Assembly (NCBI GenBank): GCA_945889325.1
Contig: CAMDBH010000008.1
Coordinates: forward strand, 10,118-74,117
Length of the DNA: 64,000 bases
Direction of reading: 5' to 3'
Source: Klebsiella pneumoniae
GTDB taxonomy: Bacteria > Myxococcota_A > UBA9042
In this document: piece after piece, positions 5,572 to 56,575 of the stretch
Numbering within the stretch: position 1 is the stretch's first letter
How the letters are laid out: every line of letters starts with the position of its first letter
The notes under the pieces: model-generated
The model's input: the letters and a program-made list of their open reading frames with translations, nothing else
Told to the model about the DNA's origin: nothing
Databases searched by the model: none
Program-made: the position numbers and the translations under genes

Positions 5572-6732
5572 ATGGACACGCTAATCCCCGATCATTACCG
5601 CATTTTGGGGGTGCAGCCGCACGCCAGCGAAGCGGACATCAAAAACGCGTACCGCAAGTTGTCGCGGATTTATCACCCCGACGCCCAGATGGGTTCGGAC
5701 CGTGCGACCGATTGCTTCAAACAAATATCTAGTGCTTATACGGATTTAGGCGACCCGTCGCGGCGATTGCTGTACGATCGCCAGTTGCTGCTCAAAGACC
5801 CCGTGCGGCTCATCGATGACCCGCGTGCCGAAAAGGCACTGGATGTGCTGGACAATGTCGTTTCGCGCTTGCGGCGGCGCCCGCTGGCGCTGCCCACCAG
5901 CGCGCGCGGGCGAGATTTGCGTGTACAGCAAACGATCCCTTTCATCTTGGCCATGACCGGCGGGCCGCTGGAAGTGAAGGCGCAGTACGACACAATTTGC
6001 AACGATTGCAATGGGATGGGGACCACCGATCCGAACAGGATGCCTGTCTGTCACGTGTGTTTGGGCAGCGGCACCTTCAAAGTAGGTTTGCGGCGGCACG
6101 ACGGCATCTGCGGCTTTTGCTTGGGGCGTGGAACGGTCGTGCTCGCGGCCTGCCCGACCTGCCGCGCCCGCGGCCAAGTCTCGGTGATGAAAACGATTGT
6201 CGCGCAAGTGCCGCCGCGCGTTCGCGCCGGTAGCCAACTTCGGGTGCGCGGCGCCGGTGAGAAGCTCAGCGGTGAAAAATCCGCTGGCGCCCAGCCCGGT
6301 GACGTCATTGTTGTGATTCAAATCCAAGCCCATCCACTGCTTACGGTCGACGGCGACGATTTGCATTGCTCGGTCCCGGTGACCTGGGCCCAGGCAGTTT
6401 TGGGCGTCAAAGTCGCAGTTCCCACGTTAGAGGGTATTGAAATATTGAGCCTATTGCCAGAAATGGTCGCGTCGCGCCATGTGCGCATCGCCCAGCGCGG
6501 CTTGCTGAAGGGCGCAGGCGCCACGGGCATAGCTGCGTCCGCCGCACAGCGCGGCTATTTGCATTTGCATTTGGAAGTGGACACCCCCGAAGCGCTGCCG
6601 CCGGAACAATTGCAGGCCGTCAAAACGCTGGAGCAATTCATTGGGGAACATCGGTTTGGCCGCGTGGTCGCCTACCAAAAGCTGGTTTCGGAAAAAGGGG
6701 TCCCTCCGGTAGAACTAGATGACCGTTGGTGA
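5572..6732 (+). CDS. DnaJ-like co-chaperone (J domain plus zinc finger, no G/F linker)
   Basis: The J domain carries HPD (YRILGV...IYHPDAQ). There are four CxxCxGxG repeats: CNDCNGMG, CHVCLGSG, CGFCLGRG and CPTCRARG. The gene starts 12 nt after the dnaK stop. Confidence 0.85.
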   Translation: MDTLIPDHYRILGVQPHASEADIKNAYRKLSRIYHPDAQMGSDRATDCFKQISSAYTDLGDPSRRLLYDRQLLLKDPVRLIDDPRAEKALDVLDNVVSRLRRRPLALPTSARGRDLRVQQTIPFILAMTGGPLEVKAQYDTICNDCNGMGTTDPNRMPVCHVCLGSGTFKVGLRRHDGICGFCLGRGTVVLAACPTCRARGQVSVMKTIVAQVPPRVRAGSQLRVRGAGEKLSGEKSAGAQPGDVIVVIQIQAHPLLTVDGDDLHCSVPVTWAQAVLGVKVAVPTLEGIEILSLLPEMVASRHVRIAQRGLLKGAGATGIAASAAQRGYLHLHLEVDTPEALPPEQLQAVKTLEQFIGEHRFGRVVAYQKLVSEKGVPPVELDDRW

Positions 6733-7693
6733 ATTGGGTGAAATGGCGTTGATCGCGCAACTGCGCGCGCTCCTCGATCGGCCGCTGACCGCGCTGTTGT
6801 TGGGCAATGGCGATGACGCGGCAGTTCTACGCGCCGACGGTGACGTGGTGTTGACGGTCGATTCGGTCGTCGAGGGCGTGGATTGGCTGCCGCAAAAGAT
6901 GCCGTTGCGGGCCATAGGTCACCGCGCTGCGGCGGTCAATCTGTCCGATTTGGCCGCCATGGGCGCCCAGCCCCAAGCGCTGCTGCTGGCTTTGGAATTG
7001 CCGGTCTCGACTTTGGTCAGCGACGTCCTTGAGGCGCTCGAGGGCCTTGCTGCCCTCGCTGATCAGCACGGCTGCGGCGTGGTTGGCGGTGACGTCGGCT
7101 TTTCGCCAGGTCCTGCCCGCTGGACTGTGACGGCTGTCGGACAACTCCACGGCGCGGGGCTACAGCGCGATCGCGCGCGTGCGGGCGATGCGATCTGGTT
7201 GATCGGCGACGTCGGGTTGGCGGCGCTCGGCCTGCGCCTGCTTGCTGCGGAATTGCCACTGGATCAACCGTGGATGCAACAATGTGTTTACGCGCATGTA
7301 TGGCCAGAACCGCTGGTTAACGCGGGCCTCGCACTGCAAGCGACCCGTGAACGCATGGCCGCCATCGACATTTCTGACGGCTTGTGGCGCGATGCCGACA
7401 GGCTGGGTCGCGCAAGCAGCGTGCATTTGGACTTGGCGCTGACCACGCCGCGCAAACTGCTGGCAGCGACAGAAATGGGCTATGATGTCGCCACCGCAAT
7501 GGCACATGGCGGTGACGACTATGCCTTATTGGTCGCGGTGCCCGCGCAATTTGATGTGGCGGCGGTGGTCGGCGCGGGCGCACAGCGAATTGGAAGGGCC
7601 CGAGCCGGACAAGCCGGCGCGACGCTGGTCCTCGACGGCGTCGAGATGGGGCAGGGCGGCTACCAACACGGTCGTTGGTCACTTCGCAAGTAG
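6719..7693 (+). CDS. thiL: Thiamine-monophosphate kinase
   Basis: The N-terminus reads GELGEMALIAQL...GDDAAVL. The motif NLSDLAAMGA indicates a PurM/AIR-synthase-like fold. The gene overlaps the upstream stop by 14 nt. Confidence 0.8.
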   Translation: MTVGELGEMALIAQLRALLDRPLTALLLGNGDDAAVLRADGDVVLTVDSVVEGVDWLPQKMPLRAIGHRAAAVNLSDLAAMGAQPQALLLALELPVSTLVSDVLEALEGLAALADQHGCGVVGGDVGFSPGPARWTVTAVGQLHGAGLQRDRARAGDAIWLIGDVGLAALGLRLLAAELPLDQPWMQQCVYAHVWPEPLVNAGLALQATRERMAAIDISDGLWRDADRLGRASSVHLDLALTTPRKLLAATEMGYDVATAMAHGGDDYALLVAVPAQFDVAAVVGAGAQRIGRARAGQAGATLVLDGVEMGQGGYQHGRWSLRK

Positions 7694-8416
7694 CAACTTC
7701 GCACTTGCAACAACCAGCACCAGCGCCAGCAAGCGACGCAGCGCGATCGGTGGCAAGCGCCTCGCGCCCAGTCCGGCGCCAATCGTCCCGCCCAGCACGG
7801 CGGCGATGGCCCACACAGGAGTTGCGCTGGGAATCAGGGCGACCGACTGCCAATTGCCCAACAGACCGGCAACCGAATTGAGCCAAATGAACACGCCTGA
7901 AAGCCCTGCGGCTTGGCGCGGTGTCGCCCACCCGCGTAAAATCGCCAGTGGCGACAGGAAGATGCCGCCGCCTGTGCCGGTTAGGCCGGCGAGCAGTCCG
8001 ATGCCGCTGCCGGTGGCAAGCGCCACCGAGGTGGGCGGCAATTTCACCGCCGCCGCGTCTTGCGCTCCGGTGCGCCGGCCCAGCCGAAACGCCGAATAAA
8101 GCAGGACCAAGCCGACGAGCCAGCGGTACCATTGGCCCGGCAGTGCGACCCAGCCTCCCAAAAATGCACACGGCACGGAGGCCAACGCAAACGGCAGCAA
8201 CGCGCGCCACGGCACCAATTGCGCGCGCCAGAACCGCAAGACGACCACAGTTGAAACCAAGATGTTGAGCACAAGCGCGGTCGGCTTCATCGCCGCGGGC
8301 GCGAGTTCGGTGAGCGCCAGCACGGCAAGATAGCCCGACGCCCCGGCATGTCCCACAGACGCGTACAAAAGAGCGGCGACGAAAATTGGGATCGGCAACC
8401 AGATGGGCATCAGCAC
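7679..8416 (-). CDS. TauE/SafE (TSUP) family membrane transporter
   Basis: This is a 245-aa multi-pass membrane protein with Gly-rich helices. Motifs include YASVGHAGASGYLAVLAL and GTGGGIFLSPL, as in sulfite-exporter TauE-like proteins. Confidence 0.75.
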   Translation of the reverse strand: MLMPIWLPIPIFVAALLYASVGHAGASGYLAVLALTELAPAAMKPTALVLNILVSTVVVLRFWRAQLVPWRALLPFALASVPCAFLGGWVALPGQWYRWLVGLVLLYSAFRLGRRTGAQDAAAVKLPPTSVALATGSGIGLLAGLTGTGGGIFLSPLAILRGWATPRQAAGLSGVFIWLNSVAGLLGNWQSVALIPSATPVWAIAAVLGGTIGAGLGARRLPPIALRRLLALVLVVASAKLLLAK

Positions 8417-8811
8417 TCCGTGGACAAGCGAAGATAATTTGCGCGCGAGGCGTGTGCAAGTCGTCTGAGCCGCGAAAAAGGGCCAAATGACAAATTTGCG
8501 ATCCAGAATGACTGGTTAGACGTAAATCCATGATTATAATATTTATTTGCGTTTGTTAACAAATAATCAAATGGGGTTCGCGACTTGTCGTTTGCCGCAG
8601 ATTGGCGTCGCGCGGGATGATCAGGGAGCAAGTGACGGCGATGATCGCGCTGTTGAGGTCTAGGTTCCTCTGGTTTCTTGGGTTTATTGCTTTGCTGCCG
8701 TCGCCACGTGGGCAGGATTTTTTTTGCTGGCCAAAGATTTGTTGGTGGCGCTTTTGCGGCCTTGGCCAAGCGCAAATAGGGTGCAAATGGGTCGCAAACG
8801 CGATCGGCGAT

Positions 8812-8858
8812 CCACTAGATGTAGGGGTGACAAATTTTCTTGACACAAGATGTGGCGT
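8812..8858 (+). promoter_or_regulatory. Two NrdR-box-like 16-mers 31 bp apart, bracketing a TTGACA hexamer
   Basis: The 16-mers are CCACTAGATGTAGGGG (8812-8827) and ACACAAGATGTGGCGT (8843-8858). Both share CAC-W-AGATGT-R-G. They match 11 and 12 of 16 positions of the published NrdR box acaCwAtATaTwGtgt. The 31-bp register is typical of tandem NrdR boxes. The site lies upstream of nrdJ. Confidence 0.3.
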
Positions 8859-9002
8859 TTTTTTGACAACCGCCGCAGCCGTGCAACGCTCAAGGCGCTT
8901 GACCCCGCCGGTGGGCCAAGTTAGGTTTAGGACGGTTGAGTTGCTGGTTGTGACGACTTTTCAATTGTGCCAGATGTCGTCCGTGGACCACATGGCGTCC
9001 AT

Positions 9003-9037
9003 GGATCACGAAAACGGTGTGGGATCATGAAAACGGT
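9003..9037 (+). repeat. Tandem direct repeat GGATCAYGAAAACGGT x2 (19-bp register) in the nrdJ leader
   Basis: Copies are GGATCACGAAAACGGT at 9003-9018 and GGATCATGAAAACGGT at 9022-9037, with 15/16 identity. Confidence 0.6.
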
Positions 9038-9629: not shown

Positions 9630-12569
9630 ATGGCCGACGCGCAGGACAGTTTGACGCAAGCAACCGAAAGCGTGACGCATGTGTCCAGTTCACGCACGCC
9701 GGGCGGGCAATTGCCGGCGTCGCAAAAGGGGGATCGCGGCCCCGGCATCGCGATGGCGCGCTTGCACACCAAAGTCGGCGTGCATCCCTTTGAGGAAGTG
9801 GCGTGGGAGCGCCGCACGGCGAGCATCACCAACACCCGCGGCGAAACGATTTTTGAGCAGAAAAATGTCGAGTTTCCCTCAACTTGGTCGCAAACAGCGA
9901 CGGCTGTCGTGGTGTCAAAGTATTTTCGCGGCACGTTGGGCACGCCGGAGCGCGAGTACAGCGTGCGCCAGTTGATCGGCCGGGTTGTCAATACGATCGG
10001 CCAGTGGGCGCGTCAGGGCCAGTATTTTGCAACGGAAATCGACTGCAAAGTTTTTGAAGATGAATTGACATGGCTGCTTTTGCACCAGCGCATGGCCTTC
10101 AACAGCCCTGTGTGGTTCAACGTCGGCGTTGAAGCAAAACCGCAATGTTCGGCCTGCTTTATCAACAGCGTCGACGACACGATGGAATCCATCCTGTCGC
10201 TGGCCAAAACCGAAGGCATGTTGTTCAAATTCGGCAGCGGCACCGGCAGCAATTTGTCGCCGATTCGCAGCTCTCGCGAAGCCTTGGCTGGCGGTGGCGA
10301 GGCCAGCGGTCCCGTGAGTTTCATGAAGGGTTTTGACGCTTTTGCCGGTGTGATCAAGTCCGGTGGCAAGACGCGGCGGGCGGCGAAAATGGTGATTTTG
10401 GATGTACAACATCCAGATATTGTTGAATTTATTCGCTGCAAGATGAAAGAAGAAAAGAAGGCCCATGCGCTGATCGATGCGGGCTACGACGGGCGCATCG
10501 ACGGCGAGGCCTATACTTCGGTGTTCTTTCAGAATTCGAACAATTCTGTGCGGGTTAACGACGAATTCATGCGCGCTTTTGAAAACGGCGAACAGTGGCA
10601 GACCAAGGCCATTCGCGACGGCCGCGTGGTTGATACACATCAAGCCAAAGACATTATGCATGAAATTGCCGATTCGACCTGGCAATGCGGCGATCCCGGC
10701 ATGCAGTACGACACGACCATCAACGACTGGCACACCTGTCCGAACACGGCGCGCATCAACGCGTCCAATCCGTGCAGCGAATACATGTTTTTGGACGATT
10801 CTGCTTGCAATTTGGCAAGTTTGAACCTGATGAAGTTTGTCACGCCGCAAGGTGAGTTTGACTGCAAAGAATTTCAACACGCGGTCGACGTCACGATTAC
10901 GGCGCAGGAAATTTTGGTCGATTTTGCGGCCTATCCGACGGCGCGTATCGAAAAAAATAGTCATTTGTTCCGGCCGCTTGGATTGGGTTTCGCCAATTTG
11001 GGGGCCCTGCTCATGACGCGCGGTTTGGCTTACGATTCGGCGGAAGGTCGCGCGTATGCGGGCGCAATCACGGCGCTGATGCACGGTCAAGCCAACTTGC
11101 AATCTGCGCATATTGCTGAGCAAATCGGCGCATTTCCGGGCTATGATCTCAACCGCGAGCCGATGCTGCGGGTAATGAACAAGCACCGCGCAGCTGTCAA
11201 TGCCATTGATACCGTAGCGGTTTCGGGCGATCTGATGGCGTCGGTCCGCCAAGTGTGGGACGACGTCGTGGCGGCGGGTGGGCAGTTTGGTTACCGCAAT
11301 GCGCAAGTCAGCGTGCTCGCACCTACTGGAACTATTGCCTTTATGATGGATTGCGATACGACGGGCATTGAACCAGACATCGCACTTGTGAAATACAAGA
11401 AGCTGGTCGGTGGCGGTACGTTGAAGATCGTTAACAATGCGGTACCGCAAGCCCTGCAAAAGCTCGGCTATTCGGCCCAGCAAGTTGAAGATATCACGAC
11501 GTATATTGACCAGAACGATACGATCGAAGGCGCGCCGCATCTGCGTTCGGGGCATCTGGCCGTGTTCGATTGCGCGTTTACGCCGGCCAACGGCACGCGG
11601 TCTATCCATTATCAGGGGCACTTGAAAATGATGGCGGCCTGTCAGCCGTTTCTGTCGGGCGCGATCAGCAAAACCGTCAATTTACCGCATGATGCGACGA
11701 TTGAAGACATCGAACGCACGTATTTGGAAGCGTGGAAATTGGGCATCAAGGCGGTGGCGGTGTACCGCGACGGCTGCAAGCGCAGTCAACCGCTGAGCGT
11801 GAAAAAAACCAGTGATACCAAAGAAGGCAACACGTTGGGGCACGCGGAAAATCAAGCCGACGTGCGCGCGGGCGGGGGGGGGGCTGAACGAGTCGTTGAA
11901 AAAATTGTTGAAAAAGTGGTCGAAGTGACCAAGCCCGGACGGCGCAAACTTCCAGAGGAGCGTCAGGCACTTACGCATAAATTCAGCATCGCGGGCCACG
12001 AGGGCTACATCACGGTGGGCATGTACGAGGACGGCACGCCGGGCGAGATGTTCATCCGGATGGCCAAGGAAGGCTCAACCCTGAGCGGACTTCTGGATGC
12101 TTTTGCCACTTCGATCTCCATGGCGCTGCAATACGGCGTGCCGCTGCAGGTGTTGTGCGACAAGTTCACGGCGACGCGCTTTGAACCCAGTGGTTTTACA
12201 GGCAATCGCGACATTCCGATCGCCAAGTCGATCACCGATTACATTTTCCGTTGGATGGCGCTGAAGTTTTTGGACGCTGGTGAACAGGATATCGTCGAAT
12301 TGCCGCCCGTCGAGGCGCCTGTGGCGCCAACGGTCAGTTCGTCGGCACCGTCGGCGGCGCCGCGGATTAAAGCCAGCAAAACTGTTGGTTTTGCGGTCGA
12401 TTCAGTTGCGGCCGTGAAAGCAGACGTGGTGCCGACAAAAGCTGACAACAGCAAGCTCTTTAAGGCCTACATGGACAGCCCGCTGTGCTCGAGTTGCGGT
12501 CGCATGATGGTGCCGGCGGGCAAGTGTTACCGCTGCGATTGTGGGGCAACGTCGGGCGGTTGTTCGTGA
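9630..12569 (+). CDS. nrdJ: Adenosylcobalamin-dependent ribonucleotide reductase, class II
   Basis: Class II RNR blocks are present: VGVHPFEEVAWERR, VVSKYFRG, PVWFNVG, CSACFI and FKFGSGTGSNLSPIR. The C-terminal zinc ribbon is CSSCG...CYRCDC. I prefer the ATG at 9630, which has GGAGA 6 nt upstream. The listed ORF start at 9372 would add an 86-aa low-complexity extension. Confidence 0.92.
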   Translation: MADAQDSLTQATESVTHVSSSRTPGGQLPASQKGDRGPGIAMARLHTKVGVHPFEEVAWERRTASITNTRGETIFEQKNVEFPSTWSQTATAVVVSKYFRGTLGTPEREYSVRQLIGRVVNTIGQWARQGQYFATEIDCKVFEDELTWLLLHQRMAFNSPVWFNVGVEAKPQCSACFINSVDDTMESILSLAKTEGMLFKFGSGTGSNLSPIRSSREALAGGGEASGPVSFMKGFDAFAGVIKSGGKTRRAAKMVILDVQHPDIVEFIRCKMKEEKKAHALIDAGYDGRIDGEAYTSVFFQNSNNSVRVNDEFMRAFENGEQWQTKAIRDGRVVDTHQAKDIMHEIADSTWQCGDPGMQYDTTINDWHTCPNTARINASNPCSEYMFLDDSACNLASLNLMKFVTPQGEFDCKEFQHAVDVTITAQEILVDFAAYPTARIEKNSHLFRPLGLGFANLGALLMTRGLAYDSAEGRAYAGAITALMHGQANLQSAHIAEQIGAFPGYDLNREPMLRVMNKHRAAVNAIDTVAVSGDLMASVRQVWDDVVAAGGQFGYRNAQVSVLAPTGTIAFMMDCDTTGIEPDIALVKYKKLVGGGTLKIVNNAVPQALQKLGYSAQQVEDITTYIDQNDTIEGAPHLRSGHLAVFDCAFTPANGTRSIHYQGHLKMMAACQPFLSGAISKTVNLPHDATIEDIERTYLEAWKLGIKAVAVYRDGCKRSQPLSVKKTSDTKEGNTLGHAENQADVRAGGGGAERVVEKIVEKVVEVTKPGRRKLPEERQALTHKFSIAGHEGYITVGMYEDGTPGEMFIRMAKEGSTLSGLLDAFATSISMALQYGVPLQVLCDKFTATRFEPSGFTGNRDIPIAKSITDYIFRWMALKFLDAGEQDIVELPPVEAPVAPTVSSSAPSAAPRIKASKTVGFAVDSVAAVKADVVPTKADNSKLFKAYMDSPLCSSCGRMMVPAGKCYRCDCGATSGGCS

Positions 12570-12578: not shown

Positions 12579-12610
12579 GCTGTGAAATGGATATTTCACA
12601 GCCTCTGAGG
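12579..12610 (+). repeat. AT-rich hairpin element H1 (GCTGTGAAAT-GGAT-ATTTCACAGC plus CTCTGAGG), 10 nt after the nrdJ stop
   Basis: The stem is a perfect 10 bp with a 4-nt loop. The element is 30/34 identical to the inverted copy at 29764-29797 and is related to the copy at 30064-30095. Confidence 0.7.
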
Positions 12611-12660
12611 TTTGCCCAACGGGTCGAGCACACACAGGCGAAAGTGCGGCGCGCCGACGA

Positions 12661-12692
12661 ATCGGAAAAAGGGAATCGGAAAAAGGTGTCCC
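12661..12692 (+). repeat. Tandem pair of A5 motifs (ATCGGAAAAAGGGA / ATCGGAAAAAGGTGTCCC)
   Basis: The pair lies in the convergent nrdJ-gpmI spacer and belongs to the A5 motif family described in the findings. Confidence 0.6.
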
Positions 12693-12740
12693 GTTGGCAA
12701 CACCATGGCACGACAGTAAAAAGCTAGGGCCGCTGACGCT

Positions 12741-14411
12741 TCAGGCGATCAAACTGGGCTCGTAGTCAGCCGGTGCGTCGTACCCAAGCAAATTGCAAAG
12801 CGTCGCTGCGACATTGGCCAAACCGGCGTCGGGGAGGTCAGTGCGCAATTGCCAAGCTTGCTGCGGCCGCGCGTCGAAAATGGTGAATGGCACGGGGTTG
12901 AGCGTGTGGCTGGTTTTGGGCTGCGGTACGCCGTCTCGCATCACCGGCTTGCCTTTGCTGTCTCGGGTCCACATGTCGTCCGCGTTGCCGTGGTCGGCGG
13001 TCACGACTAGGATTCCGTTGAATTCCTTGACTAAATCGAGTAGGCGGCCTATTTCCGAATCGACGGTTTCAATGGCCGCTATCGTCGCCCGCAAGTCGCC
13101 AGTGTGCCCGACCATGTCGCCATTGGCATAATTGAGCCGAACAAAATCCGGCCGTTGCGCGTCGCGCAGGCTTTTTTCCACCAAGTCGGTAATCTCCCTT
13201 GCGCGCATTTGCGGTCGTTGGTCAAAACTGAGCCGATCCGAAGGCACTTCCGCATAGATTTCATGGTTAGCATCCAGAACGCCCGAACGATTGCCATTCC
13301 AAAAATACGTGACGTGGCCGTATTTTTGCGTCTCACTCACCGCGAACGTATGCACGCCAAGGGCCGCAAAATATTCGCCAACCGTGCGTTCAATCGCTGG
13401 CGGCGTCACCAGAAAACGTTTAGGCAGCTGCAAATCACCGTCGTACTGCATCATGCCGGCATAACGCACATCCGGCTGAAAAATGCGCTCGAAGTGTTTG
13501 AATTCATCGCGTTGTTCAAAGCACTGCGTCAATTCGATCGCCCGATCGCCGCGAAAATTCCAAAGAGCAAAACTGTCGCCATTGCGCACGCGGCCCAGCG
13601 GTTCGTTGTCGGCATCGGCCAAGACGAACGGACCCAGCTTTTGATCCGAATCGCCGCCCGGCTGCGCGCGCAAAAAAGCCAAGGCGTTTTGCAGCGTCGG
13701 AAAAAGGGGTCCCTCACCTAAAACATGACATCGCCAGCCTTTTTCGACAATGGACCAATCGGCCTCATAGCGATCCATAGTCACAGTCATGCGCCCGCCC
13801 CCCGACGCGACCAAGTAATCGCGATGGGGATACAGACGCAAATGGTCCTGCAATTGCTGAAGATAATGCTCAAACGACGGATCGGCCACGTCTCGCCCAT
13901 CCGCGAGCACATGCAGGCGAACGCGCTGCACGCCGCCGCGATCGGCCGCGGCGAGCAAAGCCAAAACGTGGTCGATATGGGCGTGGACATTGCCATCCGA
14001 CAATAGGCCGCATAAATGCAAGGTGCTTTGCGGATTCAGCTGTTGCGGTTCAATCAACCATTGCCAGGTGTCGCCGCTAAACAGGCGGCCGTTTTGGATG
14101 GCGTCCGCGACGAGCGCCGCGCCTTGGCGAAAAATTCGCCCAGCGCCCAACGCGTTGTGGCCGACTTCACTGTTGCCCATATCGGCGTCGCTCGGCATGC
14201 CGACGGCCACACCGTGTGCGCGCAGGTTTCGCGTCGGCGCATTTTGCCAAAGCCAAGTTAGCGTTGGCTTTTCAGCCAGAAACACCGCGTCGCCGCCGTC
14301 ACCCAGACCCATGCCAACACCGTCCATGATCGCAAAAATCACTGGGCCGGTCGGCGGCAAAAACGCAGCATGCGGCTTGAGCTTTTCTACGGTCATTTCA
14401 GGTCCTTTCAA
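12741..14411 (-). CDS. gpmI: 2,3-bisphosphoglycerate-independent phosphoglycerate mutase
   Basis: Signature motifs are GNSEVGHNALGAGR and VVTADHGNADDM. The 556-aa length is typical of iPGM. Confidence 0.92.
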   Translation of the reverse strand: MKGPEMTVEKLKPHAAFLPPTGPVIFAIMDGVGMGLGDGGDAVFLAEKPTLTWLWQNAPTRNLRAHGVAVGMPSDADMGNSEVGHNALGAGRIFRQGAALVADAIQNGRLFSGDTWQWLIEPQQLNPQSTLHLCGLLSDGNVHAHIDHVLALLAAADRGGVQRVRLHVLADGRDVADPSFEHYLQQLQDHLRLYPHRDYLVASGGGRMTVTMDRYEADWSIVEKGWRCHVLGEGPLFPTLQNALAFLRAQPGGDSDQKLGPFVLADADNEPLGRVRNGDSFALWNFRGDRAIELTQCFEQRDEFKHFERIFQPDVRYAGMMQYDGDLQLPKRFLVTPPAIERTVGEYFAALGVHTFAVSETQKYGHVTYFWNGNRSGVLDANHEIYAEVPSDRLSFDQRPQMRAREITDLVEKSLRDAQRPDFVRLNYANGDMVGHTGDLRATIAAIETVDSEIGRLLDLVKEFNGILVVTADHGNADDMWTRDSKGKPVMRDGVPQPKTSHTLNPVPFTIFDARPQQAWQLRTDLPDAGLANVAATLCNLLGYDAPADYEPSLIA

Positions 14412-21433: not shown

Positions 21434-22081
21434 ATGGCTCAGGTGAATTTGCGCGCGCTGCCGTCGCTAAAAGATTACAGCAACAATGAACTCAAACTGC
21501 TCGCCAATGTCGCTCCGGCGCGCGAGTATCCGGTCGGGCAGGTCATTTGCCGCGAGGGTGCAGGTGCGGCGTCCTGTTTTTTGCTTGCGACTGGCGAAGT
21601 CAACATTTCCAAAAAGACCGAAGAGGGCGACAAAATACTCGCAACGTTGCGCGCGGGCGCGATCGTGGGCCAAATGGCCTTGGTTGATCGCGCACCTCGC
21701 TCGGCTACGGTCACGACGTCGGCAGAAACGATTGCGCTTGAACTCACGCGCGACGTGTTTGAAGATTTGTTGCGATCTTCGAGCGCGCTAGCCTTGCGCT
21801 TTCAGGAACAAATTGCCATTGCCGGCATTCGGCAGCTGCGTGTGGCCACGCAGCGTTTGGCCACGATCTTGGCCGATATTCACGCCGCGGCTGAAAAAAC
21901 GCGGGCAAAAAAAGAACCGGATGCGCCGATCGCAGGTGCGCAGCGCGACCAATTGCTGACCGTGCAAGCTGCGCTGGATGAGTGGGATATGTCATTGGAA
22001 GATCTAGACAACGTCCATGTTTACACCCCCGACGGCCAGATGGGGCAGGCCGAACTAAAAGCGCGCATGGGCATCCGCTGA
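21434..22081 (+). CDS. Second stand-alone cyclic-nucleotide-binding domain protein
   Basis: The pattern reads ...YPVGQVICREGAGAASCFLLATGEVNI...LRAGAIVGQMALVDRAPRSATVTT. The gene starts 19 nt after the first cNMP gene. Confidence 0.8.
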   Translation: MAQVNLRALPSLKDYSNNELKLLANVAPAREYPVGQVICREGAGAASCFLLATGEVNISKKTEEGDKILATLRAGAIVGQMALVDRAPRSATVTTSAETIALELTRDVFEDLLRSSSALALRFQEQIAIAGIRQLRVATQRLATILADIHAAAEKTRAKKEPDAPIAGAQRDQLLTVQAALDEWDMSLEDLDNVHVYTPDGQMGQAELKARMGIR

Positions 22082-22083
22082 TC

Positions 22084-22105
22084 GCGAGGTGGCCTTTTTC
22101 CGAGC
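22084..22105 (-). repeat. A5 motif copy (reverse orientation): GCTCGGAAAAAGGCCACCTCGC
   Basis: The copy lies between the cNMP gene stop (22081) and the dus start (22126). On the + strand it sits in the loop of GGTGGC...GCCACC. Confidence 0.55.
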
Positions 22106-22125
22106 CACCCTTGGAATCTTTAGTT

Positions 22126-27414: not shown

Positions 27415-28677
27415 CTACTCGGAAAAAGGTATCACCGCCGGATTTGCTTGCAATACAGCGGCTTGCTGCGGCGTCAGTTTGCTCGCAGCCTGACTGGTTT
27501 TGAAGTACATCAAGTTGGTGTCGTCGCCGGTTTCGGGGGTGTCCGGGATGGCGTCATGCAGCGGTTGGCCGGTCGGCGGATCGGCTTCGGTAGTATGAAA
27601 CAGCCCAAGATAATGACAAATCTCGTGGGCCATCACCTTGCCGATCAGATCCTGGCCCGCGTTGGTCGCCAACACCACGCCCGACCGCGGCCCGGGCTGC
27701 CGCGCGATCAAGCCCGACGGCGGCCCGGGAATGCCGCCGGAAAGTCCAGCAATTGTGACGGGCGCGGCGCCAGTGTCGACCATGATCGCGTCGACGAGAA
27801 AAACATTTATGCCCGGCGGCAGCGCCGGCGCCCCCAAAAACAGCGAGGCGATCTCAAGGTCCAGTCCGTTGTCATGTTTGACGATCAAGGTCGTTTGGGC
27901 CATGTCGAACAGGCGAAAGTGGGCGATTTCAATGCCGGCCTGGGCCAGAATGTCCTTCACATCCGCGAACATTTGCACGATCAGTGGGTGCTGCGAGGCG
28001 TTCGTCGCCGTGATACCCTTGGTGCCGCTGAGGCACAGGTTGATGTCGATCGCCCCAGCCTTTTTTTGTTCTGGGGTTTTGCAAACGATATCAAGGGAAA
28101 CGGCGACCGAAGCGCTGGCGCCTTTGATCGTGCCCGCCGCGGCGTCATAATCAAATGCGAAAGCGGAAAGGGTATTTTCGCCAGGGTGAAGTACGAGTTG
28201 CGGCGAATTTGGCAACAAAAAAGCGGCGGCCTGCGGTTGCGCGCGCACGCGATTTTGGCACGCCGCGCAAAGCCACGGCGCGTCGGCATCTTGCAGCCAG
28301 GTTTTGGGCACGACCAGATCGCCTGCGCCGCCCGTCCATTGGGCCACCTGAATTTGGTGTTTTGCACTAGAAAACGTAGCGACAACGGAGGACGCACCCA
28401 TGGGAATCTGCACACCAAAAGCCGCGGTGCGTCCGGCATCGTCGGTTGTAAAATGGCCTGCGTCGACTTGCAGGCGCCAGGCAGGGCAACCATCGGCCGC
28501 TTCATCGGGAGGGGTATCGGCGGCGGACTGGTCTACGGGCGCACTGTCCTGCGCATCTGCCCCAGTGCCAGGGGTCGAACACGCGAAAAAAGTCAATAAT
28601 AACAAGGTTGTGAAGATATATGTGCAAAACTTGGTCGCAGCTGTTGCCGACTGGAATAGAACGCTACGGGCTGGCAT
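27415..28677 (-). CDS. Metzincin lipoprotein, M43 (pappalysin/ulilysin)-like
   Basis: The internal ATG at 28677 gives MPARSVLF...LLLLTFFAC. The zinc site is HEICHYLGLFHTTE, followed by IPDTPE and NLMYF as in M43. The listed ORF runs to 29544, but its first 289 codons look non-coding. Confidence 0.75.
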   Translation of the reverse strand: MPARSVLFQSATAATKFCTYIFTTLLLLTFFACSTPGTGADAQDSAPVDQSAADTPPDEAADGCPAWRLQVDAGHFTTDDAGRTAAFGVQIPMGASSVVATFSSAKHQIQVAQWTGGAGDLVVPKTWLQDADAPWLCAACQNRVRAQPQAAAFLLPNSPQLVLHPGENTLSAFAFDYDAAAGTIKGASASVAVSLDIVCKTPEQKKAGAIDINLCLSGTKGITATNASQHPLIVQMFADVKDILAQAGIEIAHFRLFDMAQTTLIVKHDNGLDLEIASLFLGAPALPPGINVFLVDAIMVDTGAAPVTIAGLSGGIPGPPSGLIARQPGPRSGVVLATNAGQDLIGKVMAHEICHYLGLFHTTEADPPTGQPLHDAIPDTPETGDDTNLMYFKTSQAASKLTPQQAAVLQANPAVIPFSE

Positions 28678-29742: not shown

Positions 29743-29766
29743 GCAGAGGTGCCCTTTTTCCGAAAC
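29743..29766 (-). repeat. A5 motif copy (reverse): GTTTCGGAAAAAGGGCACCTCTGC
   Basis: This copy directly abuts hairpin H2. Together they form the composite hairpin-CTCTGAG-TTTCGGAAAAAGGGCACCTC. Confidence 0.6.
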
Positions 29767-29797
29767 TCAGAGGTTGTGAAATATTCATTTCACAACC
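29764..29797 (-). repeat. AT-rich hairpin element H2 (GGTTGTGAAAT-loop-ATTTCACAACC plus CTCTGAG), inverted relative to H1
   Basis: The stem is a perfect 11 bp (29772-29782 pairs with 29787-29797) with a 4-nt loop. Confidence 0.7.
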
Positions 29798-30027
29798 AGC
29801 TTCGCAGGGGGCAGGTATTGCCAGTTTCTGTTCCGCAATTTCATAATCCATTGATATTATTTGATTCAGTTTTTGCCTGTGAGCACGCGGCGGGTCGATC
29901 GGCAGAAATTGACAACACCTGACCCCAATTAGAGATGCAGCATGCCGCCGCGGTCGGCACCCTCGATGGACGAAACAGCAGTGCGGCAGGCTGCATGCAG
30001 GCCGCGGATGCGGGCTGCCGCGGGGGT

Positions 30028-30063: not shown

Positions 30064-30095
30064 GGTGAAAAAGGGATTTTTCACACGCTCTCAGG
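30064..30095 (+). repeat. AT-rich hairpin element H3 (GTGAAAAA-GGGA-TTTTTCAC plus ACGCTCTCAGG), overlapping the pyrE stop
   Basis: The stem is a perfect 8 bp and the flank CTCTCAGG resembles the CTCTGAGG of H1. The stem-loop contains the A5 core GAAAAAGGGA. Confidence 0.6.
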
Positions 30096-32447: not shown

Positions 32448-34775
32448 GTGAGTTCACGCACACTTGCCATCGCGACCGTCGCAGTTTGTGTGATGCTGGC
32501 TTCGCCGTTGCTGTGGACGCTGTCGCAACCCGGGGTCTATGTAGGCAACGGCACTGACCTTTTTTCCTATCAGATTCCGGCACGGGCGTTTGTCGCAACC
32601 TCCTTGCGCGCCGGCGAATTTCCGTTTTGGAATCCGTACGTTCTGGGAGGAGTTTCGCTCCACGCCGCAACCCAACTCGGTCTGACTTATCCGCCCAACC
32701 TTCTGGCGGCACTGTGCTTCGGCGTGCACTGCAACACTTGGTTGCTCGCGTTGCACCTGCTGTGGCTAGCGTTCGGTGCGATGGTTCTTGCCAGGGCCCA
32801 TCAAGGGCAATTGGCGAATTTTTCAAAGATTTCGCCACGCGAATGGCTGACCGCGTGTGGTGTTGCCACGGTGCTAATCGGGAGCGGGCCCTGTTGGGGT
32901 CATGTTTTCGCCGGTCATATCAGTTTTATAGCAGCATTTTCGTGGCTTCCGTTTGTTTGGGCCTTCGCGATCGATGCGCAGCTGCGGCACAAACTTGCGT
33001 CGCTTTTGGCGGCCGGAGCTGCGCTTGCCCTGCAAGTGCTGGCCGGCCATCCGCAGGTCACGTATCTGACGATTGTTGGGTTGGGATTTGCGCTGTTGGC
33101 GCACGCGGTCGGGCCGCAAGCGACTTTCGGAAAAAGGTATCCCTCAAGCAACTCGCTGATCATGATAGTCGTTGCTGCCTTCACCGGCGCAATCGCCCTA
33201 GCGCTTTCAGCCGCGCAGTGGTGGCCGACCCTGCAGGTCGCCGACACCTTCAACCGCTCATTGGCGACGCCACACGAGATTGCGACGGCCTATTCCGCAC
33301 CCGTGCAAAGTTTGTGGACGCTCCTCGCTCCGCAGATTTGGGGAGGCGTTTCGACTCCGTTAGCAGCATTTTCGTACCATGAAACAGTGGCTTATGTGCC
33401 GTCAGCGGCGCTGGCATTGGTGCTCCTCCGGTTCCCTTGGACGGGTCCGCGCGGCTGGGTTCTCGCTGCAGGAGTCGCATTTTGTCTAACGATGTCACTG
33501 GGCGATCACGGCCCGCTGCTGGAACCATTGCTAGATCTGCTGCCGGGCGCGGCGAGTTTTCGCGTGCCCGGTCGGTGGCTTTTGCCTGCCACCGGATTGC
33601 TGGCGCTCCTCGTTGCAGAAACGTCGGATGTAGATGATCTAAAACAGAAAAAACCTCGGTGGCCGACGCTCGCGCTGTGCGCTCTGGTCGCGACCTGGCT
33701 TGCAATTCAGGCAACAACTCTGGACGGCGCTCACGGTTGGTGGGCTGACGCGATTTTACCCAAACTAAAAGGTTCGAACTCCGCACAACTTTTGGCCATT
33801 ACATCCAGAAATGCACTGATGCTTGCCGCGTGTCTGGCGGCGATTGGCTGTCTAGCGGCTTGGTGGACCAAGCGAACGTGGATTTCCGGCGGTCTGGTCG
33901 CAATATCTCTGTTGCAAGGCGTATGGTTTGGCGCCCAACATGTCGGAGCTGAGCGGCAAATGCCGTCGGAGAACCTGCAATGGCAACCGGATGAGGTGGC
34001 GGCTCTGCAAAAGCTGGTCGACGATCAGCATCGCCTAGCGACCGCGCCGGCTTTGCGGATGACAAATTGGGCAGGGCAGTATCGATTGCGGGCGGCAGGC
34101 GGTTACGAACCCGTTGTCAGCGTTGACACCAATCGATACGCAAACTTACTTGCCGGTCGTGCGACCGACGGGTACGCAGTGATGTTCCAGATTCGCCGAC
34201 CATCACCCTGGCTCGACCGCATGGCCGTCGGTGCGTTGTTGTTGGACGGCTCTGACCGATCTTCGGCGCAAGCTTTTTCTACATGGCCGCAAATACAAAG
34301 CTTTGCTTCGGGGCGGGTGCTACGGCAGAACCCTCACCCGCTGCCACGTTTGGCTTGGGCAGGTCGCCTCGACGTGCAAAAGGACAATAAGCTTGCCGTG
34401 GAAGCGATCAAAATTGCGCCCGTGGACGTTTCCATCTTGTCTCGGCCCCTGACGCATGTTCAAGGTGCTGGCCTTTCTATCGAGGTCACTGGTGACCATG
34501 CGACAGAATTGCATGTAAAAGCTGCCGCTTCCGCGCCTTGCGTCTTGCTCGTTCGCGATGCGCTGGCGCCGGGCTGGCAGGCAACCGTAGACGGCGTCGC
34601 TGTCCAGGCAGCCGTCGCAGACGGACTGTTCCGCGCAATTTCAGTGCCATCCGGAACGCATGACGTCGTGTGGCGCTACCGAGCGCCCGGATTTGCCGGT
34701 GCCTTTGTCTTTAGTTTGCTCGCGTGGATCGCCCTTGGCGTGGCGTTGGCGATCGCGGTTAAGCGGCGAATTTGA
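32448..34775 (+). CDS. Large polytopic membrane protein, YfhO/GT-C-like (putative extracytoplasmic glycosyltransferase)
   Basis: The GTG start has GGAAGGA upstream. There are about 12 or more N-terminal TM helices, a large soluble C-terminal part and one terminal TM (FVFSLLAWIALGVALAIAV). This topology matches YfhO-like proteins. No catalytic motif was verified. Confidence 0.5.
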   Translation: MSSRTLAIATVAVCVMLASPLLWTLSQPGVYVGNGTDLFSYQIPARAFVATSLRAGEFPFWNPYVLGGVSLHAATQLGLTYPPNLLAALCFGVHCNTWLLALHLLWLAFGAMVLARAHQGQLANFSKISPREWLTACGVATVLIGSGPCWGHVFAGHISFIAAFSWLPFVWAFAIDAQLRHKLASLLAAGAALALQVLAGHPQVTYLTIVGLGFALLAHAVGPQATFGKRYPSSNSLIMIVVAAFTGAIALALSAAQWWPTLQVADTFNRSLATPHEIATAYSAPVQSLWTLLAPQIWGGVSTPLAAFSYHETVAYVPSAALALVLLRFPWTGPRGWVLAAGVAFCLTMSLGDHGPLLEPLLDLLPGAASFRVPGRWLLPATGLLALLVAETSDVDDLKQKKPRWPTLALCALVATWLAIQATTLDGAHGWWADAILPKLKGSNSAQLLAITSRNALMLAACLAAIGCLAAWWTKRTWISGGLVAISLLQGVWFGAQHVGAERQMPSENLQWQPDEVAALQKLVDDQHRLATAPALRMTNWAGQYRLRAAGGYEPVVSVDTNRYANLLAGRATDGYAVMFQIRRPSPWLDRMAVGALLLDGSDRSSAQAFSTWPQIQSFASGRVLRQNPHPLPRLAWAGRLDVQKDNKLAVEAIKIAPVDVSILSRPLTHVQGAGLSIEVTGDHATELHVKAAASAPCVLLVRDALAPGWQATVDGVAVQAAVADGLFRAISVPSGTHDVVWRYRAPGFAGAFVFSLLAWIALGVALAIAVKRRI

Positions 34776-36728: not shown

Positions 36729-36795
36729 GATGAACTCCATAGGTGGGGAATCGCGCGCAGGTACGTAAAACGCTAAAAAACAAACAATATCAGGG

Positions 36796-36815
36796 ACTAG
36801 AAAAAGGGGTCCTGC
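36796..36815 (+). repeat. A5 motif copy: ACTAGAAAAAGGGGTCCTGC
   Basis: The copy lies immediately 3' of the CRTAC1-like gene stop (36819), in the loop of CAGGGAC...GTCCTG. Confidence 0.5.
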
Positions 36816-36818
36816 AAA

Positions 36819-40266: not shown

Positions 40267-40296
40267 ATTTCTCCAGAAATGGTTGTAATTACAGAA

Positions 40297-40320
40297 TACA
40301 GAAAAAGGTCACCTCTCACC
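40297..40320 (+). repeat. A5 motif copy: ATACAGAAAAAGGTCACCTCTCACC
   Basis: The copy lies in the divergent spacer between the oxidase and GNAT genes. Confidence 0.5.
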
Positions 40321-41284: not shown

Positions 41285-42316
41285 TCAAAAAATATTTTTT
41301 CCCATAGTGCTAGCCACTTTGGCTCGCACTGCAAGCACGGCCGGTGCGGCCGAGCCACCGTTGCCGCGCACTCCTGCCCGACAAGGAAACGCGAGAAATG
41401 GAAAAACCACCGCTCTGGCTCGACGGCCATTGCGCCCGCGTTGTTCTTGAGCGCGCAACTCTTGGCGGGCCAGGTCGTATTCATCCTCAAATGCCTGAAA
41501 CCGTTTGATGTATTCGTCCCGATCGCGTGCCGTAGGGGCGTGCACGATAGGTTTTCGGCGCGGGAGGGGCGGTGGTGCCGAGCGCTGCGGTTGATCTGGT
41601 GGGTCAGTTTGACTAGATTTATCAATTGGTTGTGGGGTGTCCTCGCCTTCGATGGCTTTGGTTCGCCGTTCAGAGATGTCCTTTGCAATATCCTGATATA
41701 ATTTGTGAAAAACATCGTCGGCCAATCCTTCGTGGCACGGCAAACGCGACATCGTGACGCTGACGCGTTTGCCGTAGGCTTCATCGACCTTCGGCCCCGA
41801 TTTCCGGCGCGCGTCCAACGTTCTGGCCGTTTGATCGAATTTCGTGCCATCGATCGAATCTCCGCGCAACATCCAAGGCAAGCTGCTTGCACCGCGGAAC
41901 TCGCTGGGATGTGAAGCGAGTCCGGCCTTGACCGCTTGTCCCATGATATAATCGATCCGTTTCATCAGGGTTGTCTCATCGATGACGACCGGAATGACAT
42001 GCGCGCTGCTGTTCCAAACTGGGCCGCGTCGGTTGTGGCGCCGGTTGGCAATACGCGCCAACGCCGCGTGAAGATGATTGAGAAATTTTGCCATTGTTTC
42101 AGGATCGGGAGCCCAGTATAGCCCGTGGTAGTGGTTAGAAAGCATGTGATAGGCGTAGATCTTCACAGGGTGCCGCAACTGTGCCGCTGCGAAGGCGCCA
42201 TTTATTGCTGCAGTTTGTGCGGGGTCGTCATCGTGAAACCAGAAGGTCCCCTCTATGGTCCTGATTGTGACCTCGAAAAATAGGTCTTGGGCGTACATGC
42301 GGATTGGATGCGACAT
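41285..42316 (-). mobile_element. HUH/Y1 tyrosine transposase-like gene (IS200/RayT-like), solitary, with a long C-terminal extension
   Basis: The HUH motif is LSNHYHGLYW. The Tyr helix is RIDYIMGQAVKAGL, compared with YIxxNPVKAGL in RayT-like proteins. The protein is 343 aa against about 150-190 aa for typical members. I saw no terminal hairpins or a second IS gene. Confidence 0.6.
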
Positions 42317-46892: not shown

Positions 46893-46924
46893 GGAAAAAC
46901 TGGAGGGTGACCTTTTTCCGAAGC
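46893..46924 (-). repeat. A5 motif copy with A5/T5 inverted repeat: GGAAAAA-CTGGAGGGTGACC-TTTTTCC
   Basis: The copy lies 10-40 nt after the stop of Cys-repeat gene 1. The reverse strand reads GCTTCGGAAAAAGGTCACCCTCCAG. Confidence 0.6.
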
Positions 46925-51862: not shown

Positions 51863-51944
51863 ACAGCTGCTTGGGCGGCCGTTGATGTTCGCGATGATGC
51901 AAGTTCGGCGGCGGGTCGAACGGATGCACAGTCAGGAGTCGCCG

Positions 51945-55184: not shown

Positions 55185-55253
55185 GCGTTGGTCTGTTGCC
55201 GGTGGCTCGTGCGGCAAAAACGACCAATTCCGCCAAACCCCTGTCATTTCATG

Positions 55254-55283
55254 GATCAGAAAAAGGGTGCCCTCCCACTTTTT
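55254..55283 (+). repeat. A5 motif copy with A5/T5 inverted repeat: GATCAGAAAAAG-GGTGCCCTCCCA-CTTTTTG
   Basis: The copy lies 70 nt after the stop of Cys-repeat gene 3 and upstream of the next lipoprotein gene. Confidence 0.6.
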
Positions 55284-55339
55284 GCGCATCGTCGGACTCT
55301 CCGCTACGCTTAAGGGCCACCGGTGGGCGACACAACAAA

Positions 55340-56575
55340 ATGACGCGAGAAATCCTTATTAGCCTCACCTTCACAGCGCTGTGCGGCTGCTACGACGACA
55401 CCACGGATCGCCCTGCGCCTGCAAATACCCTAAATAATATCGGTTTTACCCTCGCCGCCTCCAAACGTGTCTTGGTGGTCGTCGATTCCGACTACGCCTC
55501 GTCCGCGGTCGCCTTCGTCGACCTCACCAGCGGTGAAGTGGCCTCAAAAATCCTGACATCCGGCACAAAAGTCTCCGCAACCACCACGGCGCTCAGCGGT
55601 GATCTCGTCGTTGCCCAATCGCCGGCTTTGGACCTCACGGCTGTGCTTGTCGATCGCAACCACAGCGTTATTACCTGGATCGGGCGCGGCGGGGGCATCT
55701 CACAACTATCCGTATCTACGGGATTTGCTGCAAATCCTCAGGACTACGCACAAGTTTCAGCGCAGTACGGCTGGGCGTCGCGCAATGCCCGCAATCCGTT
55801 GCCGTCGGCCCCAACCGACGATTTCGACGAAGGCGACGACTTGGTCGAAATCGACCTAGCGACGCACAAGATCGTGCGCCGCGTACCCCTTGGCGCGCAC
55901 ACGAGCCTGCCCGGGGCCGCCGCTGGAGCGATGCGCATGGCGTTCGACGGCGTGTCACTTTGGGTGCCGCTGTCGTCGATCAGCGCCGATTTCAAAGCGC
56001 AAGGCGCCGGACGTGTCCTTGCCGTTGATGCCAAAGCTGCCGCCATTGTGGCTACGGTTGACCTACCGACAACCAAAAATTGCACGACGGTGCGCTACCT
56101 TGCAAAAACGCAGCGGTTGGCTGTCGCTTGCTCGGGGTCATTTGCAGAGCCGACCAAGCAAACGCAACAGAGCGCCATCGCGGTGTTTTCGGCGGCGACG
56201 CCTTCGGATGCAGAAATTGTCTTTCAAGCTAATGAGTTGCCTGGTGGGACCCCTTTTTCCAAAGACTTCGTTTGCCTAGACGAGCGCCACTGCGCCGTCA
56301 TCGGTTTCGGCGATTTCGCCATCGGCCGCCCCGACAAATTGTGGCATCTCGACCTAGTCACCCGCAAAGCAACCTTTGTCGCCAATTGCGCCGCCCCTTT
56401 CGCCGGCAGCGGCCTATTTGCCGATGCAGCCACCGGCATCGTCTGGCTCGGCGAACGCAAACGCAGCAACGGCGACCTGCGACGATTCGATTTCACCAAC
56501 GGCAACAAAGAATTGCCCGCGATCTCCAGCAATCCTGGCGGCCTCGGCGCCACAGAGTTCGGCGCGATGCAATGA
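55340..56575 (+). CDS. Hypothetical lipoprotein, beta-propeller-like
   Basis: The internal ATG at 55340 gives MTREILISLTFTALCGC. The sequence is beta-rich and repetitive (VLVVVDSDYASSAVAFVDL..., VLAVDAKAAAIVATVDL...). No domain was recognised with certainty. Confidence 0.6.
   Translation: MTREILISLTFTALCGCYDDTTDRPAPANTLNNIGFTLAASKRVLVVVDSDYASSAVAFVDLTSGEVASKILTSGTKVSATTTALSGDLVVAQSPALDLTAVLVDRNHSVITWIGRGGGISQLSVSTGFAANPQDYAQVSAQYGWASRNARNPLPSAPTDDFDEGDDLVEIDLATHKIVRRVPLGAHTSLPGAAAGAMRMAFDGVSLWVPLSSISADFKAQGAGRVLAVDAKAAAIVATVDLPTTKNCTTVRYLAKTQRLAVACSGSFAEPTKQTQQSAIAVFSAATPSDAEIVFQANELPGGTPFSKDFVCLDERHCAVIGFGDFAIGRPDKLWHLDLVTRKATFVANCAAPFAGSGLFADAATGIVWLGERKRSNGDLRRFDFTNGNKELPAISSNPGGLGATEFGAMQ

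Follow-up and report, generated by a model that had tools for sequence, protein, structure and literature searches.

To our knowledge, short interspersed motifs in bacteria are almost always distributed genome-wide (repetitive extragenic palindromic (REP) elements, DNA uptake sequences (DUS) and uptake signal sequences (USS), Chi), tied to mobile elements, or tied to a conserved partition system. RAYT proteins are associated with REP repeats, and the sites of the parS, KorB and matS systems act on a defined DNA domain. Here we describe a motif of 22-24 nt, called the A5 motif below, which has 12 full copies within one stretch of about 50 kb in the genome of an uncultured, myxobacterium-like lineage (GTDB Myxococcota_A; UBA9042; assembly GCA_945889325.1). 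The window is the whole 64,000-nt stretch of DNA that was analysed, from position 10,118 to position 74,117 of contig CAMDBH010000008.1 (C8); positions refer to the window unless a contig is named.

The motif is asymmetric, TTCGGAAAAAGG-KNW-CCY, and has two parts, a near-invariant 12-bp arm (TTCGGAAAAAGG) around the A5 tract and a short GG-KNW-CC(Y) element with palindromic edges and a variable centre. Over 17 copies the consensus is nnTTCGGAAAAAGG-K-N-W-CC-Y-nnC, with about 28 bits (as a search pattern, TCGGAAAAAGGNNNCC). G-A5-GG is invariant, as is CC at positions 18-19, position 17 is W, and the two positions between are essentially free. The variable centres fall into recurring classes (GGT n=5, TAT n=3, CCA n=3, TCA n=2 and GCA n=2), and certain pairs of copies are identical at 19-22 of 24 nt. 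All of the 13 copies listed in an earlier note on this DNA are present, and they amount to 12 full copies and one tandem half-copy, given here with leave-one-out scores from a weight matrix made from the copies:

6685..6708, + strand: copy 1, GTTTCGGAAAAAGGGGTCCCTCCG, in the variable C-terminal tail of DnaJ (VSEKGVPP), ending 11 nt ahead of the thiL ATG at 6719; 30.2 bits.
12659..12672, + strand: tandem half-copy, GAATCGGAAAAAGG, abutting copy 2 directly and forming a 14-nt direct repeat with its start; 13.7 bits.
12673..12696, + strand: copy 2, GAATCGGAAAAAGGTGTCCCGTTG, in the convergent spacer between the stops of nrdJ (12569) and iPGM (12741); 21.3 bits.
13694..13717, + strand: copy 3, GCGTCGGAAAAAGGGGTCCCTCAC, inside iPGM and antisense to it, where the gene encodes GEGPLFPT; 25.6 bits.
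22083..22106, - strand: copy 4, GGCTCGGAAAAAGGCCACCTCGCG, in the 44-nt spacer that separates a cNMP-binding gene (stop at 22081) from dus (ATG at 22126); 17.3 bits.
27416..27439, + strand: copy 5, TACTCGGAAAAAGGTATCACCGCC, overlapping the last 8 codons (..PFSE*) of a - strand gene of 705 aa, 47 nt upstream of the next gene's start (27369); 16.2 bits.
29743..29766, - strand: copy 6, GTTTCGGAAAAAGGGCACCTCTGC, in a 558-nt spacer, 211 nt upstream of the start of the 705-aa gene; 21.9 bits.
33124..33147, + strand: copy 7, CTTTCGGAAAAAGGTATCCCTCAA, inside a gene for a YfhO-like membrane protein, in sense (FGKRYPS), and alike at 22 of 24 positions to the copy at C1:131598; 27.2 bits.
36794..36817, + strand: copy 8, GGACTAGAAAAAGGGGTCCTGCAA, between two - strand genes, 2 nt from the stop of an FG-GAP/ASPIC gene and 66 nt upstream of the start of a fibre gene; 17.8 bits.
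40295..40318, + strand: copy 9, AATACAGAAAAAGGTCACCTCTCA, in a divergent spacer, 29 nt from the start of a DAO oxidoreductase gene and 304 nt from that of an acetyltransferase gene; 17.7 bits.
46901..46924, - strand: copy 10, GCTTCGGAAAAAGGTCACCCTCCA, between Cys-repeat proteins 1 and 2, 18 nt past the stop of the former and 163 nt before the start of the latter, framed by GGAAAAA/TTTTTCC; 29.5 bits.
55253..55276, + strand: copy 11, GGATCAGAAAAAGGGTGCCCTCCC, in the spacer between Cys-repeat protein 3 and a lipoprotein gene, 69 nt past the stop of the former and 64 nt before the ATG of the latter at 55340, and followed by CTTTTT; 22.6 bits.
56242..56265, - strand: copy 12, TCTTTGGAAAAAGGGGTCCCACCA, inside the 411-aa lipoprotein gene and antisense to it, where the gene reads GGTPFSKD; 21.9 bits.

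The matrix was checked by leave-one-out, in which the 12 full copies score 16-30 bits, and by comparison with a third-order Markov version of the genome. The genome holds 18 matches of 19 bits or more, whereas the Markov null expects 0.75 per genome. Of these matches, 12 lie inside the window; the over-representation of the extended motif does not extend to the genome at large, where the flanks of the octamer GAAAAAGG are not conserved. This octamer, put at about 17 in the earlier note, occurs 18 times on the two strands of the window, compared with a mean of 2.8 (maximum 7) in dinucleotide-preserving shuffles and about 5.1 predicted from its 276 occurrences in 3.47 Mb. Five of the 18 octamers are not motif copies. 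Those at 8474 and 61471 are without an extended match, the one at 13738(-) is formed by the codons of the conserved VEKGW of iPGM, the one at 30067 is the loop in an unrelated hairpin repeat, and the one at 45551 is a chance match with a leave-one-out score of 8.2 bits.

Chance, base composition, a coding repeat or an assembly artefact has a negligible probability as the source of the array. The genome is rich in A/T-run words, many of its 8-mers occurring at 9-13 times the frequency expected from composition, and the loops of a hairpin-repeat family described below supply some of the GAAAAAGG excess seen genome-wide. However, this explanation is refuted by the Markov null, by the copies' unrelated flanks and their differing frames and strands, and by three independent assemblies of the same population, in which the sequence is the same (99.97-100% identical, and for this reason uninformative on strain variation).

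The array spans C8:16.8-66.4 kb (window 6685-56265), that is 49.6 kb, and the other 29 kb of the contig has no motif matches. The assembly comprises 3.47 Mb in 128 contigs and is 84% complete; outside the window, its 3.4 Mb hold about 6 copies of at least 19 bits, among them a small cluster at C1:131.0-137.3 kb and singles at C1:27.6 kb, C13:38.0 kb and C27:33.7 kb. Degenerate copies (15-19 bits) elsewhere in the genome show a modest excess, 18 vs about 9.5 expected. The octamer GAAAAAGG reaches only about 4 times its composition expectation genome-wide, and genome-wide over-representation of the extended motif is rejected, since the flanks of the octamer are unconserved outside the window. 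Moreover, TCGGAAAAAGG is the most contig-clustered 11-mer of the genome apart from protein-repeat words, with 8 of 11 occurrences on C8 (p ~1e-11). Over 30 bases on either side, the flanks of the copies have a mutual identity of 8/30, which is the chance level. Because the flanks are unrelated, the array did not arise by duplication; what recurs is a unit of no more than 22-24 nt. The earlier note had regarded confinement to this window through local duplication as fatal to its proposal; the copies are indeed largely confined, yet duplication is excluded, and the confinement is the main finding rather than a refutation because the copies are not local duplicates. The signal is lineage-private, DNA-level and essentially local. 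As for the replication context, dnaA lies on another contig, the GC skew is too weak for use, and no dif-like site was found.

In the small cluster, a gene for a GT4-type glycosyltransferase (C1:130999-131621) carries one strong and one degenerate copy, 600 nt apart and in sense, which read SEKGIPP and SENGIPL. With 2 more matches within 6 kb, they make up this second cluster beside the contig end.

A comparison with related genomes, which the earlier note had proposed, places the motif in this lineage alone. It is absent from the four syntenic loci of the closest relatives (65-69% amino-acid identity; best matrix score 7 bits), and no enrichment was found in 30 genomes of the family or class. 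No analogous dispersed motif was detected in the best syntenic locus, L009, by a test whose top word in the window is the A5 motif. An exact-pattern scan of 185,579 species genomes (GTDB) returned 47 single matches, which is the chance level, and no species representative with several. In the literature, a search with the core sequence retrieved nothing but primers and viral sequences that are unrelated to it.

These comparisons also bear on a different origin for the array, by which the 50-kb stretch and the smaller C1, C13 and C27 tracts would have been imported by homologous recombination from an unsampled sister lineage that carries the motif genome-wide, for example as a DNA-uptake-type signal. 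The sharp boundaries of the array inside the contig, the similar density of the C1:131-137 kb cluster and an anatomy like that of DUS/USS (a short asymmetric core in both orientations, between genes or near stops, with compatible peptides where it is coding) are in line with such an import. It is nevertheless unlikely: the genes are single-copy housekeeping genes, the composition of C8 is typical (rank 87/94 in tetranucleotide distance from the genome mean), none of the species representatives has more than one exact match, and, for the central ArsA-like gene, the nearest homologue in 5.8 billion proteins reaches only 69% identity, so that no such sister lineage has been sampled. Binning contamination is likewise rejected, C8 being compositionally typical. 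The GC content of the lineage itself is 58%, and its assembly, at 84% completeness, measures about 3.5 Mb; its closest relatives (loci L009, L010, L178 and L180) have 65-70% GC and 5-8 Mb. These differences suggest an isolated branch whose genome has been reduced and has shifted towards AT.

The placement of the copies is far from random with respect to genes. Seven of the 12 copies are fully non-coding, although only 8% of the DNA in the span is non-coding (p ~1e-5), and 2 further copies lie in the last 8-16 codons of a gene. Among these 9 intergenic or terminal copies, 7 are within 100 nt of a stop codon, in agreement with the earlier statement that more than half of the extended copies are intergenic and mostly near stops. 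Six copies lie at junctions of co-directional genes (intra-operon), 2-3 in promoter-type spacers, one copy together with the half-copy in a convergent spacer, and the remainder within genes (4 inside genes). Relative to local transcription, 4 copies are sense, 6 antisense and 2 ambiguous; both strands are used, without bias. The spacing is somewhat more even than random (coefficient of variation 0.56, p = 0.04), at about 1 site per 4.5 kb. It is also evident that the intragenic copies are read in different frames and on both strands, the peptides SEKGVPP, GPLFPT, TPFSKD, PFSE* and FGKRYP having been correctly assigned, and the signal is one of nucleic acid and not of protein, as the earlier note had concluded.

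Copy 11 counts as intergenic because the lipoprotein start was re-assigned. The longest form of this reading frame (55340-56575, +) begins at TTG 55058, and the start is most likely ATG 55340; from there the protein would open MTREILISLTFTALCGC, a lipoprotein-type signal with a lipobox cysteine.

The surroundings of the array are those of an ordinary chromosome. The stretch holds polysaccharide-export genes, DnaK, DnaJ, ThiL, a class II ribonucleotide reductase (NrdJ), the cofactor-independent phosphoglycerate mutase (iPGM), an operon of uncharacterised genes, two cNMP-binding proteins, Dus, a Ser/Thr kinase, an ArsA-like ATPase, YfhO-like, fibre and FG-GAP/ASPIC proteins, an FAD oxidoreductase and three giant Cys-repeat surface proteins. 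Neither phage or plasmid genes nor recombinases were found in it, and a prophage, an integrative and conjugative element (ICE) or a plasmid island is rejected in view of this absence and of the housekeeping genes (DnaK/DnaJ/ThiL, NrdJ, iPGM, Dus). The iPGM (12741-14396, -) is much nearer to trypanosomatid/plant-type than to Bacillus-type bacterial enzymes (E = 5e-178 and 2e-173 with PDB 3nvl and 3igy, vs 1e-85 with 1ejj).

The proximity to stop codons, at most 100 nt in 7 of the 9 intergenic or terminal copies, raises the possibility that the motif acts in transcripts, as a 3'-end, terminator, processing or stability signal. Copies 2 and 4, when read on the reverse strand, have CCTTTTTCC directly after a short stem; in copy 2 this is a T-run after a 6-bp stem, terminator-like for iPGM. 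A hairpin loop contains the core in copy 4 only (with a 6-bp stem) and, weakly, in copy 8. A weak purine/U-run wobble hairpin is possible in the reverse-strand RNA of several copies, and A5/T5 arms frame two copies (46895-46919 and 55258-55282), as reported earlier, and also a third at 13698-13745. Nevertheless, an RNA-level element is very unlikely. The orientation is mixed, several copies lie deep in genes in antisense, and only 2 of the 12 copies are terminator-like, for which reasons the 3'-end processing signal proposed in the earlier note is not upheld. All three scans gave terminator-like matches in numbers no different from those of shuffles (32 vs 30, 19 vs 29 and 23 vs 26). There is no common RNA fold, the folds of both strands differing among copies; five copies analysed on both strands have no shared single-stranded DNA stem, and the fold energies of 3 of the 5 equal those of shuffles, with Z-scores near 0. 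No Rfam family matches in the window or at the external copies. Similarly, no association with sigma-54-type promoters was found, and upstream activator sites for such promoters are rejected. Nor does any second motif accompany the copies within 150 nt.

Our preferred reading, which we hold tentatively, is that the array is made of duplex-DNA recognition sites of one putative sequence-specific protein. Among the three candidates of the earlier note, a protein-binding site fits best, and the REP/MITE-like (miniature inverted-repeat transposable element) repeat and the 3'-end signal are not sustained. The occurrence in both orientations and the lack of transcription bias suggest that duplex DNA rather than RNA is recognised. 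Recognition by a protein is suggested by this orientation-independence and by the tolerance within genes at permissive positions, as well as by the rigid core with a free centre, the lack of a fold and the substitution-type copy in iPGM; the conservation profile of the motif resembles that of a binding site. The iPGM copy (copy 3) is without an indel in comparison with solved iPGM structures and 11 family relatives. Since G[ED][AG]PxFPx is already found here in the relatives, copy 3 is a partly matching site completed by substitutions, mostly synonymous. Binding sites usually arise in just this way, through substitutions that complete partly matching sites. The DnaJ tails of relatives vary in sequence and are similar in length, with no clear insertion at copy 1; insertion of the motif into iPGM or DnaJ is rejected, as there is no indel.

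If such a protein exists, its sites would be kept by selection and placed where coding constraint is lowest, in operon-junction spacers, gene termini and variable protein loops. Together they would make up an array, bounded and about 50 kb long, with an effect in cis on its chromosomal stretch; that the array is bounded suggests a function tied to this stretch. Candidate roles for the protein are those of a regional regulator, a roadblock or a nucleoid-structuring protein. We infer the protein binding, the maintenance by selection and the role of the array, all three, from the pattern of the sites.

Several points weigh against recognition by a protein. No candidate binding protein or cognate regulator was found among the genes in or near the array. 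The array genes are functionally unrelated (DnaJ/ThiL, NrdJ, iPGM, Dus and surface proteins), and an ordinary regulon is unlikely for this reason; 2-3 copies lie in promoter-type spacers, 6 at operon junctions and 4 within genes. An important chromosomal function would be expected to be conserved, yet neither the motif nor an analogue is present in the syntenic region of the closest relatives. The recurring centre classes and the pairs identical at 19-22 of 24 nt suggest copying from common sources and not independent origin. Finally, the small cluster at C1:131.0-137.3 kb and the scattered singles mean that the array is not strictly unique.

A more specific variant, to which we assign a very low probability, is that the array is a non-canonical chromosome-organising locus (centromere-like, condensin-loading or domain-anchoring) with asymmetric 20-bp sites, in a lineage and a family mostly without detectable ParB/parS. 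No ParB_N protein and no canonical parS (of the TGTTNCACGTGAAACA type, with at most 2 mismatches) were found in the 84%-complete assembly. Among 12 relatives from the family, 8 likewise gave no ParB_N match at 89-95% completeness, whereas the domain is present in most other families of the class; ParABS may have been lost across the family. We consider this variant because ParB_N and parS are undetected and because a dozen sites over 50 kb match the scale of parS clusters; we rate it low because the array is unconserved, because there is a second small cluster on C1 and because the assembly is incomplete.

The main rival is one in which the motif is an ultra-short interspersed repeat with little or no host function, spread by local copying through short-patch gene conversion or an enzyme of the HUH/Y1 type. 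This is possible, though we consider it doubtful. Local spread would account for the clustering, and the subfamilies with recurring centres and near-identical pairs would follow from it. The motif is lineage-private, as REP-type families are, and sits preferentially outside genes, at operon junctions and near stops, in both orientations. Degenerate copies elsewhere are in modest excess (18 vs about 9.5 at 15-19 bits). The junction that holds copy 4, between the cNMP-binding gene and dus, measures 44 nt here and 1 nt in L009; however, it measures 117 nt in L180, so that junction lengths vary anyway among relatives, from 1 to 117 nt, and are uninformative. Against copying, the motif has no hairpin, terminal repeats, target duplication or flank homology, and the iPGM copy is of the substitution type with unchanged length. 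A REP/MITE-like element, as the earlier note had suggested, is contradicted by the same features, there being no palindrome or hairpin, no inverted terminal repeats (ITRs) and no target-site duplication, and about 18 copies instead of hundreds.

The enzyme that such copying would call for has one candidate in the assembly, which lies inside the array:

41285..42316, - strand: divergent RAYT-like Y1 (HUH) gene (NCBIfam NF047646, REP_Tyr_transpos).

This gene, the only one of its kind in the assembly, matches NF047646 over profile positions 4-143 of 146 with E = 8e-13, its 48 bits falling short of the 80-bit cut-off, and matches Pfam Y1_Tnp marginally (E = 0.016). The protein has 343 aa, with HYH and YIMGQAVKAGL motifs, and is extended at its C-terminus by about 150 aa in which Pro, Arg and Gln are abundant. 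The gene may be related to the motif, and its position inside the array speaks for copying; but it is not flanked by copies, the nearest lying 1.0 and 4.6 kb away, and no repeats were found in its flanks. Moreover, the RAYT-like family has 4-13 copies in several family relatives, which have no motif, and some of these copies are identical, which suggests an active IS-like element in those relatives. We know of no Y1/RAYT substrate that is without a hairpin.

A more natural substrate for a Y1 enzyme than the motif is in fact present in the genome, namely a separate, genome-wide family of about 79 hairpin repeats, of type A (GCTCAGAGGCTGTGAAATGAATATTTCACAGCCTCTGAGC) and type B (GAGAGCGTGTGAAAAAACCTTTTCACCGCTCTC). 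A type-A and a type-B hairpin frequently form a pair, about 160 nt apart and with an internal inverted repeat (GGGGTCTGGTATT / AATACCTGACCCC) between them; at about 230 nt, such a pair resembles a MITE- or PATE-like element. Examples in the window and elsewhere are:

12582-12617: hairpin repeat in the window.
29776-29811: hairpin repeat in the window.
30065-30095: hairpin repeat in the window.
C1:82160-82360: hairpin repeats outside the window.
C1:92534-92760: hairpin repeats outside the window.
C2:97358-97550: hairpin repeats outside the window.

Since many contigs end in hairpin repeats, these probably cause assembly breaks. The motif is not a part of this family: only copy 6 abuts one of its members, a type-A repeat, and the flanks of the other hairpin copies are unrelated.

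If the protein-binding array that we prefer is real, it would represent a regional DNA-protein system of a new kind, in a family most of which seems to lack ParB. If the motif is instead a copied repeat, few known repeats would be as short, and its spread would require a hairpin-free copying mechanism. Either outcome would be modestly informative, and sequence alone cannot decide between them.

How, then, does the A5 motif compare with the systems already described? It resembles the REP/REPIN-RAYT systems of E. coli and Pseudomonas in being short, species-private and extragenic, in lying at junctions and stops, or 3' ends, in either orientation, and in having one RAYT-like gene in the region. 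Unlike these, it has no imperfect palindrome or hairpin and no GTAG-type head, its copies number about 18 and not hundreds and are confined to about 50 kb, and the RAYT-like gene is unflanked by copies and belongs to a family that is multi-copy in motif-free relatives. A REP element is rejected, given the missing hairpin, the unflanked gene and 18 matches with 12 of them in 49.6 kb. A MITE is also rejected, because the shared unit is 22-24 nt, the flank identity is 8/30, and there are no inverted terminal repeats or target-site duplications. The dRS3 element of Neisseria (20 bp) is similarly a very short interspersed intergenic unit with conserved edges and a variable middle; but dRS3 is a symmetric inverted repeat with hundreds of copies, flanks larger mosaic elements and is a target of phage integration, none of which is seen here. 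Intrinsic (Rho-independent) terminators share the position near stop codons, the T5 run on one strand and, in two copies, the preceding short stem, whereas 10 of the 12 copies have no GC-rich stem, the orientation is independent of the upstream gene and several copies are intragenic; with only copies 2 and 4 fitting and the scans equal to shuffles, a terminator is rejected.

The likeness to the DUS of Neisseria and the USS of Pasteurellaceae lies in the asymmetric core of 10-12 nt with a weaker extension, in the use of both orientations, in the enrichment between genes and near 3' ends and in the tolerance within coding DNA at compatible peptides. Those signals, however, are genome-wide, at about 1 per kb and in hundreds to thousands of copies, whereas the A5 motif has 12 copies in 50 kb and about 6 elsewhere; a DNA uptake sequence is rejected on account of these 6 outside matches in 3.4 Mb and the octamer flanks that are unconserved genome-wide. 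The arrays of parS sites in ParB clusters, of the 12 KorB operators on the 60-kb plasmid RK2 and of the matS sites of MatP likewise have about a dozen sites over tens of kb, inside and between genes and in either orientation, and the A5 motif is clustered on the same scale, with 12 sites in 49.6 kb and sharp boundaries. Those sites are palindromic and conserved across related species, and their binder is identified and often encoded nearby, whereas the A5 motif is asymmetric, private to one lineage and without a known binder; as it is asymmetric and neither canonical parS nor a ParB_N match was found in the 84%-complete assembly, parS is rejected. The A5 motif departs from all the usual kinds in being asymmetric, free of a hairpin, overwhelming in its statistics and bounded to 50 kb of housekeeping and surface-protein genes, and it is private to a single deeply branching, uncultured, myxobacterium-like lineage.

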